Below are positions 9,101 through 18,015 of a stretch of 18,015 nucleotides of DNA, in pieces; within the stretch, counting starts at the first letter, position 1; each line of letters begins with the position of its first letter. The notes below the pieces were generated by a model. It saw only the letters and a list, made by a program, of their open reading frames with translations. It searched no databases and was not told the origin of the DNA. The position numbers and the translations under genes were made by a program. Source of the DNA: Anaerolineae bacterium (GTDB lineage Bacteria; Chloroflexota; Anaerolineae; S140-20); assembly GCA_027021705.1 (NCBI GenBank), contig JALUTT010000014.1, positions 1-18,015 on the forward strand, in the 5' to 3' direction.

Positions 9101-9648
9101 CGGACGGTGACCCCTTCGTCTGGGGCACCCTCTTCGGCTGGCTCTTCGTCCACGCCCTGGGGGAGGTGGTCGGGCCGGAGGACGCCGCCGAGCGGAGCCG
9201 GAGCTGGCTGGACGAATGGCTGCTGGGCAAGATCGTCGCCCGCACGCTGACGGGGTTGAGCCTGGACGAGGGGCCGGCCCAGCAGGCGGTCACTCTCATC
9301 AAGCTCCTCATCGTCCACCGGCTACGGTGCACCGAGGGGGAAGCGCCCGACCTCGCCCGGATGCTGGAGGGCTGGTTGCAGGACGAAGCGGTCCGGCGCT
9401 TCCTCCAGGTCAACCGCTACCAGGGGATCCTCTGGTTCAACAAGGAAGCCTTTGAACGGCTGCTCTGGTGGATGCTGGTCGTCGCCGTCGTGATGATCCT
9501 CGCCGATGCCGACCGCTCGGCTGCCGAGAAGGTCGAGGCCATCTTCGCCTGCTACACCCTCGTCGAAAGACTTCAGCAGGCCGAAGAGGCGTCGGGGTAT
9601 CAGGTGGAAAAGCTCATCGCGGCGGCCGGGGCGGAAACGGCGGCGTAG
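6166..9648 (+). CDS. large GH13 alpha-amylase-family glycosidase (1160 aa)
   Basis: GH13 conserved regions: ASDMVPNH (I), IIRFDAAM (II, nucleophile Asp), LLLAEAFW (III, acid/base Glu) and FMNNPDE (IV). Long N- and C-terminal extensions; GAGGT precedes the ATG. Confidence 0.9.
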   Translation: MEFHISREARDRYRFDERLFSLRGNVIFPNFHAARLFAQRMNEKRDLARFPERAVQAGQINALGLIDELLHYVAALYRQQRNPQALARALDYLDAALGREAVDETLRRFVEAFPPVAVYRGELSPEAYLEGETEGMPNRQATLEELMMLWLANANPACTPFQELFDDAPLEEETAYRQIIAHLHDFFDTQPPFGPDEQNLLDMLQSPARAVPDSLFGQLEYIRERWGYLLGRYIHRLLRSLDLLREEAKGAPPGPGPARVYDFAGLELEPERFSPDLDWMPQLVLLAKHTYVWLDQLSRTYQRPIQRLDQIPDEELDRLARWGFTGLWLIGLWERSPASRRIKHLCGNPKAAASAYAIFDYQIAAELGGEAALQNLKARAQRRGIRLASDMVPNHMGIDSRWVIEHPERFLSVDTCPFPSYTFTGPDLSWHPEVGIYLEDHYYDRTDAAVVFKRVDRRTGRALYIYHGNDGTSTPWNDTAQLDYLNPETREAVIQTILRVARQFPIIRFDAAMTLTKRHYQRLWFPEPGTGGAIPSRAEHGMTRAEFDARMPQEFWREVVDRVAAEAPDTLLLAEAFWLMEGYFVRTLGMHRVYNSAFMNMLRDEENANYRTVMKNTLAFDPEVLKRFVNFMNNPDEETAVVQFGKEDKYFGVCTMMVTMPGLPMFGHGQVEGFAEKYGMEYRHAEWDEQPDPYLIARHEREIFPLLRRRHLFAEVEHFLLYDCETPEGHVNEDVFAYSNRAGDERSLVIYHNRYATARGWIRTSVAYRDKRTDRLVRKSLGEGLGLRKDERYFCIFRDHVTGLEYIRNNRELHEKGLYVELGAYKYHVFLDFREVEDNQWHQYARLAAHLNGRGVPSIEEALHELLLQPIHTPFRELVSADAFRWLMAARVVEPEALEEITPLLEEVEGKLVRLFRAVREHAGGEGDEAALARAVRRKLAALLHLPILGREGDPLTEAVPPAQRERWQALTRYLVTPPDGDPFVWGTLFGWLFVHALGEVVGPEDAAERSRSWLDEWLLGKIVARTLTGLSLDEGPAQQAVTLIKLLIVHRLRCTEGEAPDLARMLEGWLQDEAVRRFLQVNRYQGILWFNKEAFERLLWWMLVVAVVMILADADRSAAEKVEAIFACYTLVERLQQAEEASGYQVEKLIAAAGAETAA

Positions 9649-9722
9649 CGGCATAGCGACGTAGCGGCGTGGCGGCGTGGCGGCATAGCGACGTAGCGAC
9701 GTAGCGATATAGCGGCATAGCG
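9643..9722. repeat. 8-bp tandem repeat, 10 degenerate units (consensus RYRTRGCG)
   Basis: gcgtagcg gcatagcg acgtagcg gcgtggcg gcgtggcg gcatagcg acgtagcg acgtagcg atatagcg gcatagcg. It includes the GH13 stop codon and fills the intergenic space up to the next RBS. Confidence 0.95.
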
Positions 9723-12475: not shown

Positions 12476-12489
12476 GAGGTTGGAGGTGA
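12448..12489 (+). pseudogene. orphan 3' tail copy 1 (EIQRSLEELRGWR*) of the same probable RM gene family
   Basis: Out of frame with ORF 12170. Its peptide matches tail copy 2 (EIRRSSEELR*) at 8 of 10 residues. The terminal GGAGGTGA doubles as the RBS of darTG. Confidence 0.55.
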
Positions 12490-12491
12490 CT

Positions 12492-13655
12492 ATGACTAGA
12501 CGTTTGCGCGAATTCTATTACATCACCCATATCCTCAATCTGCCCTCTATCCTTCGTGAGGGAATTCTCTCCCACGCCGAGGTTGAACGGCGAGGCATTG
12601 AGCCAGTTACGGTTTACGATGTGGGGGTGGTATCCTGGCGTCAAGAGAAGATCACGCCCGATGGTCATTCCCTTTGGGAATACGCTAACTTGTATTTCAA
12701 CCCTCGCAATCCTATGCTGTACCGTCTGCTTATGGAGCACAAGAACACCGAGATCGCGGTGTTGGGAGTACGCAAAAGCATCCTAAACACACCTGGTTCG
12801 TTCGTAACAACGGGCAATGCGGCGCGCTCGGAAACTGAGATTCTGCCCAAGGAGAAATGGACGGAGCGCGCTGATGAGATACTCAAAGGGATTGACGTTG
12901 AGTACTGGAGCGAGGCCGATGGGAGCAAACGGCGCATTATGGCCGAAGTATTGATACCGCAATGTATCCCGCCAGAGACAATTGATGCTATCTATGTGGC
13001 TAATGATGAAGCCCGTGAAGCAGTTCTGAAGCTTGTGAGGAGCTCTGGCCCACCTGTAGTACTGGAACCTCGTATGTTTTTTGCCCCCACTCGCATGTAT
13101 AGCCTCACGACAAGGCTGCAATTGGTCGAAGGGGATATGTTCTTCTCCAGGATGCAGACGCTCACCATCAGCGTCAACACTGTGGGAGTGATGGGGAAGG
13201 GACTGGCTTCACGAGCCAAATACCAGTTCCCAGATGCCTACGTTGTCTACCAGGACGCTTGTCGTAAGAGATTGCTCCTCCCAGGAAAACCTTATTTGTA
13301 CAAGCGTGAAGCATCATTGGATGCTGCACTTGCTGATGATACGTTCCCCTTACCATTGACGAACCGGCGCACATGGTTCCTCTTCTTTCCCACCAAGCGA
13401 CACTGGCGCGAACGGTCCCGCATCGAGGACATCGAGGCCGGGCTGGTCTGGCTCGTTCAGCATTACCAGCAGGAAGGCATTGAGTCTCTCGCTTTACCTG
13501 CTCTAGGGTGTGGCCTCGGCGGGCTGAAATGGGCAGATGTGGGACCCTTGATGTGTCGCTATCTATCACGCCTTGAGATCCCAGTGCATATTCATCTACC
13601 CCTTGAGCGCAGCGTGCCAGAAGAGCAGCTTGGCCGAGAATTCTTGTTGAAGTAG
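12492..13655 (+). CDS. darTG: fused DarT (DUF4433 ssDNA ADP-ribosyltransferase) - DarG macrodomain protein, 387 aa
   Basis: N-half: YYITHILNLPSILREGILS, YANLYFNPRNPMLY, TTGNAA and RRIMAEVLIP (catalytic Glu position). C-half: GDMF, VNTVGVMGKGLA, FPTKRHWR (DarG Lys) and SLALPALGCGLGGLKW. RBS GGAGG before ATG 12492; visibly AT-richer than the flanks. Confidence 0.92.
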   Translation: MTRRLREFYYITHILNLPSILREGILSHAEVERRGIEPVTVYDVGVVSWRQEKITPDGHSLWEYANLYFNPRNPMLYRLLMEHKNTEIAVLGVRKSILNTPGSFVTTGNAARSETEILPKEKWTERADEILKGIDVEYWSEADGSKRRIMAEVLIPQCIPPETIDAIYVANDEAREAVLKLVRSSGPPVVLEPRMFFAPTRMYSLTTRLQLVEGDMFFSRMQTLTISVNTVGVMGKGLASRAKYQFPDAYVVYQDACRKRLLLPGKPYLYKREASLDAALADDTFPLPLTNRRTWFLFFPTKRHWRERSRIEDIEAGLVWLVQHYQQEGIESLALPALGCGLGGLKWADVGPLMCRYLSRLEIPVHIHLPLERSVPEEQLGREFLLK

Positions 13656-13720
13656 AAAGCAACGAGATTTCTGAACAGGCATTAAAGCCGATCTCGTACG
13701 ACAACGGTAGGCAAGCTATC

Positions 13721-13912
13721 CTCCACCAGCGCCTGGCGGCCCTCTCGCGGCGGGCGCACGAACTGGCGCTGGCGGCCTACGGCGGGGACGGGGCGGCGCA
13801 GGCGGATCTGCGCCGGGTGGAGGACGAGGTGGACCGCGCCGCAGCGGCCCTGTGGGGGCTGACGGAGGAGGAACTGGTGGAGATCCGGCGGAGTTCGGAG
13901 GAACTGAGGTGA
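13721..13912 (+). pseudogene. orphan C-terminal fragment (63 aa, tail copy 2) of a probable type IIG RM protein
   Basis: LHQRLAALSRRAHELALAAYGGDGAAQADLRRVEDEVDRAAAALWGLTEEELVEIRRSSEELR* resembles the 'EID..V..LYGLT.EE' terminal helix of IIG methylases. Codons are host-like and GC-rich. No start codon lies between the in-frame stop at 13604 and this segment. Confidence 0.65.
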
Positions 13913-13916
13913 TGCT

Positions 13917-14198
13917 ATGCCTTCCCTGATGCTGGAGCGGGTTGTGGTCCAAGGGTATAAGTCCTTTCGGGAGCTGGACCTACCCCTGGAGCGGATCAAC
14001 GTGCTCATTGGAGCCAACGGGTCCGGCAAATCCAACTTCATCAGCCTGTTCCAAATGATGAACCGGCTCGTCAACCAGGGGTTGCAAACCTACGTCGCCC
14101 AATCCGGCGGGGCCGACCAATTGCTGCACTACGGGCGGAAGACGACGGAAAGGCTGCACGTTGAGTTCTGGTTCCAGAGGGACACCACCGCCGGATAG
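13917..14198 (+). pseudogene. truncated AAA_21/ABC-type ATPase (N-terminal 93 aa only)
   Basis: LERVVVQGYKSF...INVLIGANGSGKSNF (Walker A)...GGADQLLHYGRK. It stops before any ABC signature or Walker B. Confidence 0.8.
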
Positions 14199-14251
14199 GG
14201 TTGCAGACCATCCGGGACAGATGCCCTCACTTCGATGAGTGGGTGAGCAAA
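14189..14251 (+). pseudogene. C-terminal remnant of a DUF4276-like protein
   Basis: RRIGLQTIRDRCPHFDEWVSK resembles the 'IGL..IR..CPHF..W' end of DUF4276 proteins, which normally follow such ATPases. It is joined out of frame to the ATPase stump. Confidence 0.6.
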
Positions 14252-14320
14252 TCAGATGGACCTTTATGCCCTATCCCACCCTGCCGACATCTTTCGTTTC
14301 TTCCAGCAGCATCCTTCCCT

Positions 14321-16069
14321 GGGCGGCATCGGCTGGAAGCCGACGCCGCCCATTGGGAAGCCCGCTCTGCGGGCTTGATAAACAGAGCCGGGGGATTCCA
14401 TCCCACGGCGGAGGACGGCCGGGCAAACGAAGGGCGGCATTGGCTGGAAGCCCACGCCGCCCATTGGGAAGCCAGCTCTGCAGGCTTGATAAACAGAGCC
14501 GGGGGATTCCATCCCACGGCAGAGGGCGGCCGGGCAAACGAAGGGCGGCATCGGCTGGAAGCCGACGCCGCCCATTGGGAAGCCCGCTCTGCGGGCTCGA
14601 CAAACAGCGCCGGGGGATTCCATCCTCCGGCGGAGGGCCGGCCGAGCAAACGAAGGGCGGCATCGGCTGGAAGCCGACGTCGCCTGGTGGGAAGCCCGCT
14701 TCGCGGGCTCGACAAACGGCGCCGGGGGATTCCATCCTCCGGCGGAGGGCCGGCCGAGCAAACGAAGGGCGGCATCGGCTGGAAGCCGACGTCGCCTGGT
14801 GGGAAGCCCGCTTCGCGGGCTCGACAAACGGCGCCGGGGGATTCCATCCCACGGCGGAGGGCGGCCGGGCAAACGAAGGGCATCGGCTGGAAGCCCACGC
14901 CGCCCATTGGGAAGCCCGCTTCGCGGGCTTGACAAACAGCGCCGGGGGATTCCATCCCACGGCGGAAGGCCGGCCGGGCAAACGAAGGGCATTGGCTGGA
15001 AGCCGACGCCGCCCATTGGGAAGCCCGCTTCGCGGGCTCGACAAACGGCGCCGGGGGATTCCATCCCACAGTGGCACGCCCAGGCAAACGAAGGGCGGCA
15101 TTGGCTGGAAGCCGACGTCGCCTATTGTCAAGCCCGCTTCGCGGGCTCGACAAACGGCGCCGGGGGATTCCATCCCACAGTGGCACGCCCAGGCAAACGA
15201 AGGGCGGCATTGGCTGGAAGCCCACGCCGCCCATTGGGAAGCCCGCTCTGCGGGCTTGATAAACAGAGCCGGGGGATTCCATCCCACAGTGGCACGCCCA
15301 GGCAAACGAAGGGCGGCATTGGCTGGAAGCCGACGCCGCCCATTGGGAAGCCCGCTTCGCGGGCTCGACAAACAGAGCCGGGGGATTCCATCCCACGGCG
15401 ACACGCCCAGGCAAACGAAGGGCATCGGCTGGAAGCCGACGCCGCCCATTGGGAAGCCCGCTTCGCGGGCTTGACAAACAGAGCCGGGGGATTCCATCCC
15501 CCGGCGGAGGGCCGGCCGGGCAAACGAAGGGCATTGGCTGGAAGCCCACGCCGCCCATTGGGAAGCCCACTCTGCGGGCTTGATAAACAGAGCCGGGGGA
15601 TTCCATCCCACAGTGGCACGCCCAGGCAAACGAAGGGCGGCATTGGCTGGAAGCCGACGCCGCCCATTGGGAAGCCCGCTTCGCGGGCTCGACAAACAGA
15701 GCCGGGGGATTCCATCCCACGGCGACACGCCCAGGCAAACGAAGGGCATCGGCTGGAAGCCGACGCCGCCCATTGGGAAGCCCGCTTCGCGGGCTTGACA
15801 AACAGAGCCGGGGGATTCCATCCCCCGGCGGAGGGCCGGCCGGGCAAACGAAGGGCATTGGCTGGAAGCCCACGCCGCCCATTGGGAAGCCCACTCTGCG
15901 GGCTTGATAAACAGAGCCGGGGGATTCCATCCCACAGTGGCACGCCCAGGCAAACGAAGGGCGGCATTGGCTGGAAGCCCACGCCGCCCATTGGGAAGCC
16001 CGCTTCGCGGGCTTGATAAACAGAGCCGGGGGATTCCATCCTCCGGCGGAGGGCCGGCCGGGCAAACGA
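14321..16069. repeat. tandem array of 16 units (106-112 bp), each with three GC-rich hairpins (REP/BIME-like)
   Basis: The anchor GGCTGGAAGCC recurs at 14331, 14442, 14553, 14665, 14777, 14885, 14994, 15103, 15212, 15321, 15427, 15536, 15645, 15751, 15860 and 15969. Hairpins: GGCGGCATCGGCT-GGA-AGCCGACGCCGCC, AAGCCCGC-TTC-GCGGGCTT and GCCGGGGGAT-TCC-ATCCCCCGGC (with variants). Confidence 0.97.
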
Positions 16070-16090
16070 GCGAACGAGAAGGGCAACATT

Positions 16091-16507
16091 ATGAAGCGTG
16101 CAGGGGCTTTCTATCAACTGGTCTATCATTTCACCTGGAGCACCAAAAACCGCCTTCCCCTGATCACAAAGGAAGTCAGGCCGCGTTTGTATGCGTACAT
16201 CGGTCATAAATGCAAGGAACTGGGCTACCGCTTGTACGCTGTTGGCGGAACCGAAGACCACATCCATGTGTTGCTGAGCCTGCGCCCCACGGACGTGGTT
16301 GCCGACGTAGCCCGCCGTCTGAAGGGTGCTTCATCGCACTACATCAATCACGAAAGCGGCCTGGATGCCACGTTGTACTGGCAGGACGGCTATGGTGTAG
16401 TCACATTGCGCCACGCAGAAATCCCAAAGGTTGTACAATACATTCGCAATCAACAGGAACATCACCGCAAAAAGATATTGATGGAGGCCTTGGAGCCAGG
16501 AAGCTGA
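16091..16507 (+). CDS. tnpA: IS200/IS605-family HUH (Y1) transposase, stand-alone, RAYT-like (138 aa)
   Basis: YHFTWSTKNR, DHIH (HUH motif), LKGASS, WQDGYG and YIRNQQEHH (catalytic Tyr with YxxxQ). ATG 16091 follows GAAGGG; no tnpB downstream. Confidence 0.93.
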   Translation: MKRAGAFYQLVYHFTWSTKNRLPLITKEVRPRLYAYIGHKCKELGYRLYAVGGTEDHIHVLLSLRPTDVVADVARRLKGASSHYINHESGLDATLYWQDGYGVVTLRHAEIPKVVQYIRNQQEHHRKKILMEALEPGS

Positions 16508-16524
16508 AGAACCCTTTTTCAAGG

Positions 16525-16614
16525 ATTCTGCTCAATCCGCTCTCCCAATCCGTTGACAGCAGTCCGTTAGGGAGCGGATAGCTGTCAGCGGATTCGGGAA
16601 CGGATTGAGCGGAT
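16525..16614. repeat. palindromic repeat family 2, inverted arms just after tnpA
   Basis: The arm ...CTCAATCCGCTCTCCCAATCCGTTGACAGC (to 16560) and the arm GCTGTCAGCGGATTCGGGAACGGATTGAGCGGAT (16581-16614) are imperfect reverse complements. The same arms recur at 17704-18015. Confidence 0.9.
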
Positions 16615-16730
16615 TTGGAGCGGATGGCCGTCGGTGGATGGGGGGCCACGACTGCCAAAGCGGCCAATCGAAATCCGGGTTTTCGTACCGCTTTGTGTCC
16701 TTTGAGCCCTTGGTGTCCTTCGTGTTCCCC
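16597..16730. repeat. 134-bp direct repeat, left copy
   Basis: GGAACGGATTGAGCGG...CGTGTTCCCC, identical to 17537-17670 at 132 of 134 positions. Confidence 0.97.
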
Positions 16731-16745
16731 TAATCTGCTGCCCCG

Positions 16746-17201
16746 CTATCGCGCTACCCAATCCCCTAGTTGAAAGTCTTCGGCAAAAGGGTTCACGAAG
16801 CGGACTCCTTCTGTCACTTGACCTACGTTGAAGTCCTCGCTGAAAACAACCGGGATCTGGTTCAGTCGCGCCGCAGCCCATATCTGGGCGTCCCAAAAGT
16901 TGAACTGATGGTCACGCACGCCACGCGCCGCCTCCAGGACGATCATGCCGGTCACGTCCAGCACGGTCCAGCTCTGGAGGTAGTTCTTCACCCGATCGTA
17001 GGCCTCCGCCATGGACAGGGGAGCAGGAATCTTGCGGGTGATGGCGACAAAAAACTCGGCGAGCACCTGGGTGCTGATCACACCTGCTCCGCTGACCGCC
17101 AGGTGATCCAGGACTTCCAGGGCACGCCGTTGCTTCTCGGGCTCCGAGCGGTCGTAGGCATAGACCAGGACGTTGGTGTCCACCAGCACCCTATCGGTCA
17201 T
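16746..17201 (-). CDS. vapC: PIN-domain VapC-family toxin (151 aa)
   Basis: VLVDTNVLVYA, ISTQVLAEF, NFWDAQIWAAA and VFSEDF show the acidic PIN active-site residues. Confidence 0.93.
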   Translation of the reverse strand: MTDRVLVDTNVLVYAYDRSEPEKQRRALEVLDHLAVSGAGVISTQVLAEFFVAITRKIPAPLSMAEAYDRVKNYLQSWTVLDVTGMIVLEAARGVRDHQFNFWDAQIWAAARLNQIPVVFSEDFNVGQVTEGVRFVNPFAEDFQLGDWVAR

Positions 17202-17448
17202 ACAGGTCCTCCCGCCGCCAGGCCCGTTTGCCGGGCACAGGCCCCTGCTGGATCAGGCTCTGGATGAACGCCCGCTCCTTTTCCCAGGCTGTCAGGTCAC
17301 GCCGGGGGAAACGCAATACCCGGGTATGTTGGTCAATGGCCCGACGGATGATCTCGGCCTCGGTGATGCCTTGCTCCCGTGCCAGCCGTTTGAGGATCGC
17401 CTCTTGATGGGGTTCGATGTACACCTGCTTGCGCACCTTGGTGGCCAT
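17191..17448 (-). CDS. ribbon-helix-helix (CopG-like) antitoxin, VapB role (85 aa)
   Basis: MATKVRKQVYIEPHQEAILKRLAREQGITEAEIIRRAID is an RHH pattern, and the protein ends WRREDLYDR. RBS GAGGAGG precedes ATG 17448; it overlaps the vapC start by 11 nt. Confidence 0.88.
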   Translation of the reverse strand: MATKVRKQVYIEPHQEAILKRLAREQGITEAEIIRRAIDQHTRVLRFPRRDLTAWEKERAFIQSLIQQGPVPGKRAWRREDLYDR

Positions 17449-17483
17449 GTTACCGTCTTCCTCCTCGTTCACGATCCGCCTTG

Positions 17484-17519
17484 TACATCACATTATACAT
17501 CATCTTGCCGGGCCGTCAA
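17484..17519 (-). promoter_or_regulatory. vapBC promoter with candidate operator repeats
   Basis: Minus strand TTGACG (17519-17514), 16 bp spacer, TATAAT (17497-17492). TGATGTA occurs twice (17502-17496 and 17490-17484), straddling the -10 box. Confidence 0.75.
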
Positions 17520-17536
17520 GGTTGCCTGCCGAAGCA

Positions 17537-17670
17537 GGAACGGATTGAGCGGATTTGGAGCGGATGGCCGCCGGAGGATGGGGGGCCACGACTGCCAAAG
17601 CGGCCAATCGAAATCCGGGTTTTCGTACCGCTTTGTGTCCTTTGAGCCCTTGGTGTCCTTCGTGTTCCCC
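17537..17670. repeat. 134-bp direct repeat, right copy
   Basis: 940 bp downstream of the left copy. It differs only at tcggtgg vs ccggagg (2 positions). Confidence 0.97.
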
Positions 17671-17703
17671 ACCGGGGCCGGATCGAGTAGCTGTCAGCAG
17701 ATA

Positions 17704-18015
17704 GCTGTCAGCGGATTCAGGAACGGATTGAGCGGATGAGAGGGCACCCTCTCCGTTCAATCCGCTCCCTCAATCCGTTGACAGCAATCCGTTGGGGAGC
17801 GGATGGCTGTCAACGGATTTGAGAACGGATTGAGCGGATGGAAGAGCACCCCTATCCGTTCAATCCGCTCCCCTAATCCGTTGACAGCAATCCGTTGACA
17901 GCAATCCGTTGACAGCAGTCCGTTGGGGAGCGGATGGCTGTCAACGGATTTGAGAACGGATTGAGCGGATGGAAGAGCACCCCCATCCGTTCAATCCGCT
18001 CCCCTAATCCGTTGA
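17704..18015. repeat. palindromic repeat family 2 array (REPIN-like inverted doublets), running off the window end
   Basis: Left arms of the type GCTGTCAACGGATTTGAGAACGGATTGAGCGGAT at 17704, 17806 and 17937. Right arms of the type ATCCGTTCAATCCGCTCCCCTAATCCGTTGACAGC at ~17751, 17854 and 17985. AATCCGTTGACAGC is triplicated at 17875-17916. Confidence 0.95.

Follow-up and report, generated by a model that had tools for sequence, protein, structure and literature searches.

The window analysed here, an 18,015-nt stretch that makes up one entire contig (JALUTT010000014.1) of an Anaerolineae bacterium, possesses an array of 16 head-to-tail hairpin units ending directly upstream of tnpA, a gene that encodes a Y1-type HUH enzyme. 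The hairpin array beside the HUH gene is real, and tnpA genes of related genomes are bordered by units of the same family. With somewhat more confidence than doubt, we interpret the pair as a resident, low-copy locus resembling REPtrons, in which a REP-associated tyrosine transposase (RAYT) is accompanied by repetitive extragenic palindromes (REPs) or bacterial interspersed mosaic elements (BIMEs). In the present locus a Y1 HUH enzyme of subclass 1.2 would be combined with cognate hairpin modules subject to BIME-like local amplification, here extreme and one-sided. What appears new against the literature searched is the presence, on the borders of subclass 1.2 genes, of cognate three-hairpin modules with conserved structure, which stay beside the gene and reach up to 13–16 units. 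That search, which took in the REP table of Quentin et al. (2018), found no hairpin modules described for subclass 1.2 or for Chloroflexota.

The Hairpin Array

Tandem Repeats Finder delimits the array at 14322–16069 with a period of 109, 16.0 copies, 89% matches and a score of 2351, and finds a higher-order period of 324 as well. Within the first hairpin of the unit (H1), an 11-nt anchor recurs 16 times, spaced 106–112 nt apart. An earlier sequence-only reading had described 16 units of 106–112 bp, each with three stem-loops; the count, the sizes and the 3-nt loops stand, whereas one unit type has decayed and only 13 of the 16 sequences are distinct. Over typical units, H1 comprises 14 pairs, the G+C-rich H2 7–8 pairs and H3 9–10 pairs, and the stem sequence of H2 is almost invariant from locus to locus. 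Folded as single-stranded DNA (ssDNA), typical units reach z values of −4.3 to −4.6 against dinucleotide shuffles, none of 200 shuffles being equally stable. The decayed unit type (15526–15634) has lost the three-hairpin fold (z −0.87), and unit-by-unit inspection finds extra mismatches in several units.

The distinct units follow one another in a non-periodic order. Judged by likeness between units, some duplications involved neighbours (units 7 and 8, 3 and 4) and others were of higher order (units 6, 11 and 14; units 9, 12 and 15). The block 15311–15634, which holds units 10–12, recurs exactly at 15635–15958 as units 13–15, giving a 410-nt exact repeat at offset 324. Because this three-unit block is repeated exactly, the count of 16 could be one block off if the contig was assembled from short reads; at least 13 units are secured, since each of these has its own sequence.

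The last repeat base is 16069 and the ATG of tnpA begins at 16091, leaving a gap of 21 nt. As the earlier reading had it, the gene is intact (Pfam coverage extends over profile positions 2–121) and tnpB is missing: no tnpB lies beside tnpA and there is no room for one, the array standing upstream and 240 nt of other repeats, followed by a PIN/RHH gene pair encoded on the opposite strand, downstream. The absence of a GTAG foot was also correctly noted, as none occurs at the hairpin feet of the units in the window. A coding function of the repeat was considered and rejected, as the longest open reading frames (ORFs) of the array, 620 amino acids (aa) on the minus strand and 411 aa on the plus strand, belong to no Pfam family. 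Among 8000 scored candidates the 620-aa ORF had no relative except itself, and therefore no other long arrays called as ORFs turned up in that search.

The Encoded Enzyme

TnpA matches the Pfam family Y1_Tnp (PF01797) with 92.5 bits against a cut-off of 23, covering 2–121 of the 121 profile positions, and scores 81.9 bits in the NCBIfam model of IS200/IS605 TnpA (NF033573), above the cut-off of 55. The sequence-only reading had spoken of a RAYT-like system. The arrangement is indeed RAYT- or REPtron-like, but the protein is no RAYT: it reaches 31.8 bits in the NCBIfam model of REP-associated transposases (NF047646), below the cut-off of 80, and has no Y---NP motif. Its H57-I-H59 aligns with the HIH of IS608 TnpA and its Y117 with the tyrosine of YIENQ. 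The HUH motif and the catalytic tyrosine (Y117) are invariant in 58 sequences, as are Q121 and H124, and H125 is conserved to at least 90%. The motifs EDHIH, YWQ and YIRNQQEHH correspond to the subclass 1.2 consensus (DH[IV]H, WQ, YIKNQKEHH) given in the accessible part of Quentin et al. (2018). By its motifs, the enzyme fits subclass 1.2 of TnpA-Y1 class 1.

An AlphaFold2 model of TnpA has a predicted local distance difference test score (pLDDT) of 88.7. The closest folds in the PDB are those of ISDra2 and IS608 TnpA (E about 1e-10), while the E. coli RAYT (4er8) appears only at rank 30 of the fold search, with E 6e-6. A homodimer model scored 0.87 against 0.00 for the best of three controls, a value that may reflect likeness only, as like dimers have already been solved; of proteins solved as pairs, 20 of 30 attain the mark used for this score, and of those solved as single chains, 1 of 23. 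The runs agree in at least 80% of contacts, with a partner pLDDT of at least 86. The predicted interface involves residues 5–12, 66–71 and 99–108, and its residues P66 and T105 align with P73 and T115 of IS608, which Messing et al. (2012), in the part of the paper accessible, name as dimer determinants missing from the monomeric TnpA-REP. TnpA is accordingly modelled as a dimer of the IS200/IS608 type, a prediction resting on the computed structures.

The Y1 family is large: at E limits of 1e-3, 1e-10 and 1e-30 it numbers 8026, 2820 and 29 representatives, respectively. Many of the top-scoring representatives (P0122–P0144 and others) are 270–300 aa long and matched by the query twice; they apparently consist of two fused Y1 domains, perhaps a built-in dimer.

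Conservation of the Stems and Design of the Module

An alignment of 27 units from 26 sources was used for structure prediction by RNAalifold, which recovers the three stems with both-sided (compensatory) changes in 14 of 25 pairs; such changes are also seen in H3 across loci. Paired cells amount to 96.1% against 83.7% in column shuffles, and double-change cells to 72 against 20.6. On none of five pairing measures was the observed value reached by any of 500 shuffles, and controls in a slid register are 27–47% paired. This substitution pattern indicates that the stems are under selection for pairing.

The A.C mismatch of H1 is present in 19 of the 27 aligned units, and its mirror image, a G.T mismatch, occurs in H3 of 14 of 27. 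The 3′ flank of H1, GGCTA, likewise mirrors the 5′ flank of H3, TAGCC. Because both mismatches and flanks mirror each other, H1 and H3 can be regarded in most relatives as an inverted pair of related imperfect palindromes placed around H2. The earlier description of three different hairpins per unit is not borne out as stated, since in relatives they turn out to be this related pair and a central hairpin. In its design the module parallels a REP-iREP pair, a BIME-like or REPIN-like dimer, with the central G+C-rich H2 in between. At the foot of H3, GTAG is found in 4 of 27 aligned units (L003, L010, L017 and L024), and nTAG is the commonest form.

Linkage of the Modules to tnpA

A scan of genome contigs yielded 273 relatives of TnpA, of which 80 loci were kept and inspected over 10 kb per side. 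The best relatives come from metagenome-assembled genomes (MAGs) of Chloroflexota (Anaerolineae and allies) and are 60–77% identical. Searches by blastn with three window units found matches immediately upstream of tnpA in L002, L005, L006 and other loci. An iterated hidden Markov model (HMM) of the unit matched 82 places in 29 loci, every one of them within 1000 nt of tnpA. Modules adjoin tnpA, at a distance of at most 1 kb, in all 27 close orthologue loci of the Chloroflexota clade; together with stems kept by compensatory change, this bears out the earlier proposal that the hairpin units belong with the HUH gene.

HMMs of the single hairpins H1, H2 and H3 gave no significant match in the farther flanks of 28 sources (320,444 nt in total, all over 1.1 kb away from tnpA), the sole far matches being those in L009 (E 0.3–0.95) and L056 (E 0.28). 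The modules are tightly linked to tnpA, because all unit matches lie near the gene and none in the far flank is significant. Over the 10 kb to either side, they show no dispersal of the kind known from classical REPs.

Distant relatives from other phyla possess perfect hairpins with the same inner stem upstream and downstream of the gene in 24 of 46 evaluable loci, compared with 0 of 209 shifted windows, and the loops of these matched hairpins are often reverse-complement. The same flank-hairpin test in the Chloroflexota clade gave 9 of 21 against 0 of 103 shifted windows.

Carriage on plasmids was considered and set aside. The best tblastn matches in 72,556 plasmids were 38% and 33% identical and located on replicons of about 600 kb, and the rest belonged to classical IS200/IS605 elements; the comparison is uninformative because Chloroflexota are hardly represented among these plasmids.

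Locus Architecture and Probable Residency

In most relatives the modules flank tnpA on both sides and in inverted orientation. Typically, 10–17 nt separate the end of H1-H2 from the start codon, and 11–30 nt separate the stop codon from an inverted H2, which H3 follows. Arrays restricted to the upstream side are found in the window and in L002, L004, L005 and L006, which form the first branches in the TnpA tree (Chloroflexota clade support 99/97; five truncated rows left out). The array had earlier been called one-sided and direct, which holds in the window but turns out to be peculiar to its small group. Tandem modules stand beside tnpA in L005 (7.7 copies of 93 nt), L002 (3.9 of 106 nt), L009 (2.5 of 100 nt) and six more of 31 loci scanned, often as 2–8 copies, and within 1.5 kb of the gene in 9 of 53 distant loci of other phyla, counts to be read in the knowledge that MAG assemblies may collapse or break arrays.

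Three locus groups have retained their surroundings across species. L012, L013, L016, L017, L020 and L023 have both flanking gene sets in common, at 62–87% aa identity. In L008, L011, L018 and L029 the upstream gene is conserved at a distance that varies with module number, and L001 and L003 are conserved on both flanks. The neighbouring genes of the various loci include a two-component system and gyrA as well as restriction-modification genes, and each homologue cluster occupies 1–4 contigs. Four MAGs hold two loci. Because flanking genes are conserved and contigs per cluster are few, the pattern is that of a resident gene and not of an active insertion sequence (IS).

We weighed these observations against an ordinary mobile IS of the IS200 type, in which H1/H2 and H2/H3 would represent the subterminal left-end and right-end hairpins and the array an accidental tandem duplication of the left end. 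Such an element would agree with a protein that passes the NCBI IS200/IS605 equivalog, whose closest solved folds are IS transposases and for which a similar dimer is predicted, as well as with the presence of hairpins upstream and downstream of the gene in most relatives. L069 and L072, both from one MAG, have 641 nt in common at 97% identity, situated at contig ends, and contig ends are enriched near tnpA. Yet the flanking genes are about as diverged as tnpA itself in the three locus groups, and no MAG of the Chloroflexota clade holds near-identical copies at two diverged loci. The flanking modules are inverted, whereas the ends of IS608 are direct, and a right-end hairpin is absent in the window, L002, L005 and L006, so that the gene could not move with the units there. 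Subclass 1.2 is also described without IS properties in the accessible part of Quentin et al. (2018). On balance, we consider a mobile IS unlikely.

Several loci have a further peculiarity in their surroundings. In L001 (1–4855) and L003 (7794–13246), and also in L010 and L019, tnpA and its hairpins are located between genes for an N6_N4_Mtase methylase and a ResIII helicase-nuclease, within what resembles a Type III restriction-modification operon. Restriction-modification genes also lie immediately upstream in L002 and L006. The contigs of L016 and L023, which come from one MAG, are collinear and 98% identical over 13 kb; the tnpA of L023 is shortened (119 aa), and the downstream modules are kept in both.

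Possible Route of Array Growth

On the reading of a resident REPtron-like locus, a TnpA dimer would bind the module hairpins while the DNA is single-stranded. Such a dimer would meet like hairpins of successive units repeated directly along a single strand, an arrangement comparable to that of the left and right IS608 ends. By cutting and rejoining at two unit borders, the dimer could excise or reinsert whole numbers of units, and this activity, together with ordinary slippage and unequal exchange, may expand the modules next to tnpA, in the present case to 13–16 copies upstream. A local-amplification model, which the earlier reading had also proposed here, has already been published for tandem BIME assembly through strand transfer by a Y1 enzyme (Ton-Hoang et al., 2012, in the part accessible). 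In all likelihood, local amplification left the array as a by-product, not as a device with a function of its own, and the stems of several units have decayed.

At the unit borders, GGGC is found where the left flank meets the first unit, at each junction (tail-GGGC-H1) and at the passage from the last tail into the tnpA leader. Because each unit tail repeats the leader with its sequence resembling a ribosome-binding site (RBS), the amplified segment corresponds to the whole upstream region, from H1 to leader. These borders fit a site-specific cut and rejoin beside GGGC.

A number of points weigh against the interpretation as a REPtron-like locus with enzyme-driven amplification. As regards the mechanism, the GGGC borders fit equally well a duplication at 4-nt microhomology followed by unequal exchange, without any enzyme, and the exact three-unit block is the expected product of unequal exchange or of an assembler loop. 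H1 and H3 are inverted to each other, so a dimer of identical subunits sees two different hairpins per unit on one strand, and excision via like hairpins of neighbouring units is conjecture. As regards the module, the window carries it upstream of tnpA only, and its own H3 is no longer like the reverse complement of H1, their likeness being eroded. Protein clades co-vary with hairpin variants, yet shared descent alone would give that. As regards the survey, a dispersed family at less than about 1 copy per 100 kb is compatible with a scope of 10 kb per side, and the shifted control windows are mostly coding, so the background of hairpins in intergenic DNA is understated. Finally, a contig end lies within 600 nt of tnpA in 20 of 80 loci against 9.3 expected, which could mean assembly-breaking copies elsewhere.

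The hairpins could instead act mainly as RNA, an idea already raised in the earlier reading, either as a structured 5′ leader or as an array of small-RNA units that controls the expression or stability of tnpA. The array lies on the tnpA strand, close before the ATG, with an RBS-like leader repeated in each unit tail, and H2 of relatives stands directly against the RBS, 10–17 nt before the start codon. A precedent is IS200, which is repressed by structure in its 5′ untranslated region and by an antisense small RNA (PMC4513863, in the part accessible). A leader would nevertheless leave unexplained the inverted modules located downstream of tnpA in most relatives. The mismatches of H1 (A.C) and H3 (G.T) are mirror images, and for this reason neither strand is favoured as RNA. 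Membership of a known RNA family was rejected, since the one Rfam match in the array at E up to 1, to rsmX, stays below threshold, with 25 bits against a gathering score of 56 and E 0.4. No sigma-70-like promoter was found on the plus strand of 13600–17600, and terminator-like sites are not enriched in the array (6 versus 4.5 ± 2.0), both with the caveat that the consensus may not fit Chloroflexota. We give an RNA function little credence as the main role of the hairpins.

That the long array is an assembly artefact, a short tandem repeat over-expanded in a metagenomic contig, seems very improbable: although the window is a whole contig whose right end falls in another repeat family, and although the 410-nt exact repeat is unresolvable by short reads, 13 of 16 units are distinct and non-periodic in order, which is not what an assembler loop produces, and independent assemblies contain module arrays as well (7.7 copies on the 456-kb contig of L005 and 3.9 on the 73-kb contig of L002).

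Comparison with Known Systems

REPtrons, as described for E. coli, Stenotrophomonas and Marinomonas in the accessible parts of Ton-Hoang et al. (2012) and Corneloup et al. (2021), resemble the present system in several respects. In both, a Y1 HUH gene of low copy number occupies a conserved site and is flanked by cognate imperfect palindromes, which form inverted pairs with a linker and may be multiplied in tandem at a locus (BIME-2). The REPs of Marinomonas are concentrated next to tnpA (Corneloup et al., 2021), as the modules are here. The enzymes differ: RAYT/TnpA-REP proteins belong to class 2 and carry the motif Y---NP, whereas the window protein has Y---Q--HH (YIRNQQEHH) and belongs to class 1; the E. 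coli TnpA-REP is reported as a monomer, whereas the window enzyme is predicted to dimerize, with residues that align with the IS608 dimer determinants. The palindromes of RAYT systems have GT[AG]G at their 5′ foot, which is absent in the window's units, and the window system adds a third, central hairpin to the REP/BIME design. Classical REPs are dispersed genome-wide in high copy, in contrast to the absence of dispersed copies in 320 kb of flanks here.

The second point of comparison is TnpA-Y1 subclass 1.2 as defined by Quentin, Siguier, Chandler and Fichant (2018), whose accessible text describes it as low in copy number, unlike an IS, "REP: no", and known mostly from cyanobacteria and Bacteroidetes. 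The window enzyme agrees with it in its motifs, low copy number and lack of IS-like behaviour, and it is short too, at 138 aa against a median length of 148. The REP table of that study (supplement 2), as far as accessible, has no row for subclass 1.2 or Chloroflexi. Subclass 1.2 was published without REPs; the members from Chloroflexota and other phyla examined here are flanked by matching hairpins.

IS200/IS605 elements (IS608, ISDra2, IS200) have the same fold and catalytic motifs as the window enzyme and the dimer features predicted for it, and their tnpA is likewise bordered by hairpins read as ssDNA. The loci described here differ from them by the lack of tnpB, low copy number, conserved synteny, inverted composite modules of two or three hairpins, and tandem arrays.

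A further family, the CGTC-tagged REPs (Di Nocera et al., 2013), was considered for the modules. In relatives, CGTC stands at the start of H3 and its complement at the end of H1, and head-to-head dimers predominate in that family too. Its tag is unpaired, its stems measure 8–9 bp, its loops 4–5 nt, and it is associated with no transposase. Membership was rejected, because in the present modules CGTC lies within the stem, the loops measure about 3 nt and a Y1 gene lies next to them in every case.

Neighbourhood of the Locus in the Window

Features of the locus and its immediate neighbours are listed in Table 1. The ATPase fragment to the left ends 122 nt from the array and is weakly similar to the defence ATPases MADS3 and PtuA. 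The remainder of this AAA/ABC-type ATPase gene may have given way to the array-tnpA segment.

Table 1. Positions of the hairpin array, tnpA and adjoining features in the window.
Feature	Position	Strand	Remarks
Array of 16 head-to-tail units, 106–112 nt	14321..16069	+	Unit consists of H1-H2-H3 and a tail of 25–30 nt
H1, representative unit 10	15311..15341	+	14-pair stem with conserved A.C mismatch, loop GGA (DNA fold)
H2, representative unit 10	15349..15365	+	7-pair G+C-rich stem, loop TTC (TCT in other units)
H3, representative unit 10	15377..15399	+	9-pair stem, one mismatch, loop TCC (DNA fold)
Exact tandem duplication of 3-unit block, 324 nt × 2, 0 mismatches	15311..15958	+	Recent event or assembly ambiguity
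tnpA leader, purine-rich RBS-like stretch	16070..16090	+	Every unit tail homologous to leader up to GGGC (sequence inspection)
tnpA, Y1 HUH enzyme, 138 aa (H57, H59, Y117)	16091..16507	+	Intact; subclass 1.2 signature Y---Q--HH
Left neighbour: 93-aa N-terminal fragment of AAA/ABC-type ATPase	13917..14198	+	AAA_15 positions 1–83 of 374; remainder absent
Right neighbour: second, unrelated family of long nested palindromes	16520..16740	.	Not in tnpA module family

The second palindrome family starts 13 nt past the tnpA stop codon and occupies 16520–16740 and 17523–18015, with units of about 100–131 nt and DNA folds of −32 to −37 kcal/mol. A 148-nt direct repeat (16583–16730 and 17523–17670, 95% identical) encloses the PIN/RHH (VapBC-like) pair. 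This family was considered as the missing right-hand partner of the array and rejected; none of the 80 related loci contains a match to it, and for that reason it falls outside the conserved system.

Further observations concern the remainder of the window. A single 391-aa ORF at 12480–13655 (plus strand) encodes a DarT domain (13–201) followed by a macro domain (232–355), that is, the would-be toxin and antitoxin parts of DarTG in one frame; the ORF is located in a stretch with 52–53% G+C, against about 70% in the window. An 8-nt tandem repeat of about 10 copies, with higher orders of 16 and 32 nt, is located at 9639–9722 and covers the 3′ end of a 1160-aa ORF with an alpha-amylase domain together with the spacer to the next gene. 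The left contig end (2–514, plus strand) weakly resembles the C-terminal part of an IS66-family transposase, a match (E 8.7e-4) that does not reach the Pfam cut-off.

Implications

The comparison of loci corrects the published description of subclass 1.2 as lacking associated palindromes. With it, the range of REPtron-like loci comes to include Chloroflexota and, with lower resolution, Acidobacteriota, Planctomycetota, Armatimonadota and Bacteroidota. The system bears on the question of how REPs and BIMEs multiply and on the role of domesticated Y1 transposases. Coordinated reactions at two ends are hard to explain for the E. coli enzyme because it is a monomer (Messing et al., 2012, in the part accessible). 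The branch described here is useful in this regard, as it keeps predicted IS608-type dimer features, occupies one chromosomal site and piles up countable modules locally. Because dimer features, a fixed site and countable modules are combined, and one small protein and a few oligonucleotides are all that is needed, local amplification is directly testable in this system.

Taking the observations together, we speculate, as a long shot, that subclass 1.2 represents a widespread, vertically inherited "cis-REPtron" present in several phyla, in which the dimer would keep the modules beside its own gene and expand or contract them via ssDNA circles of whole units. If so, the locus would not be a selfish dispersing repeat; it would constitute a programmed region of variable copy number, tuning tnpA or neighbouring defence genes like a rheostat or else supplying ssDNA minicircles.

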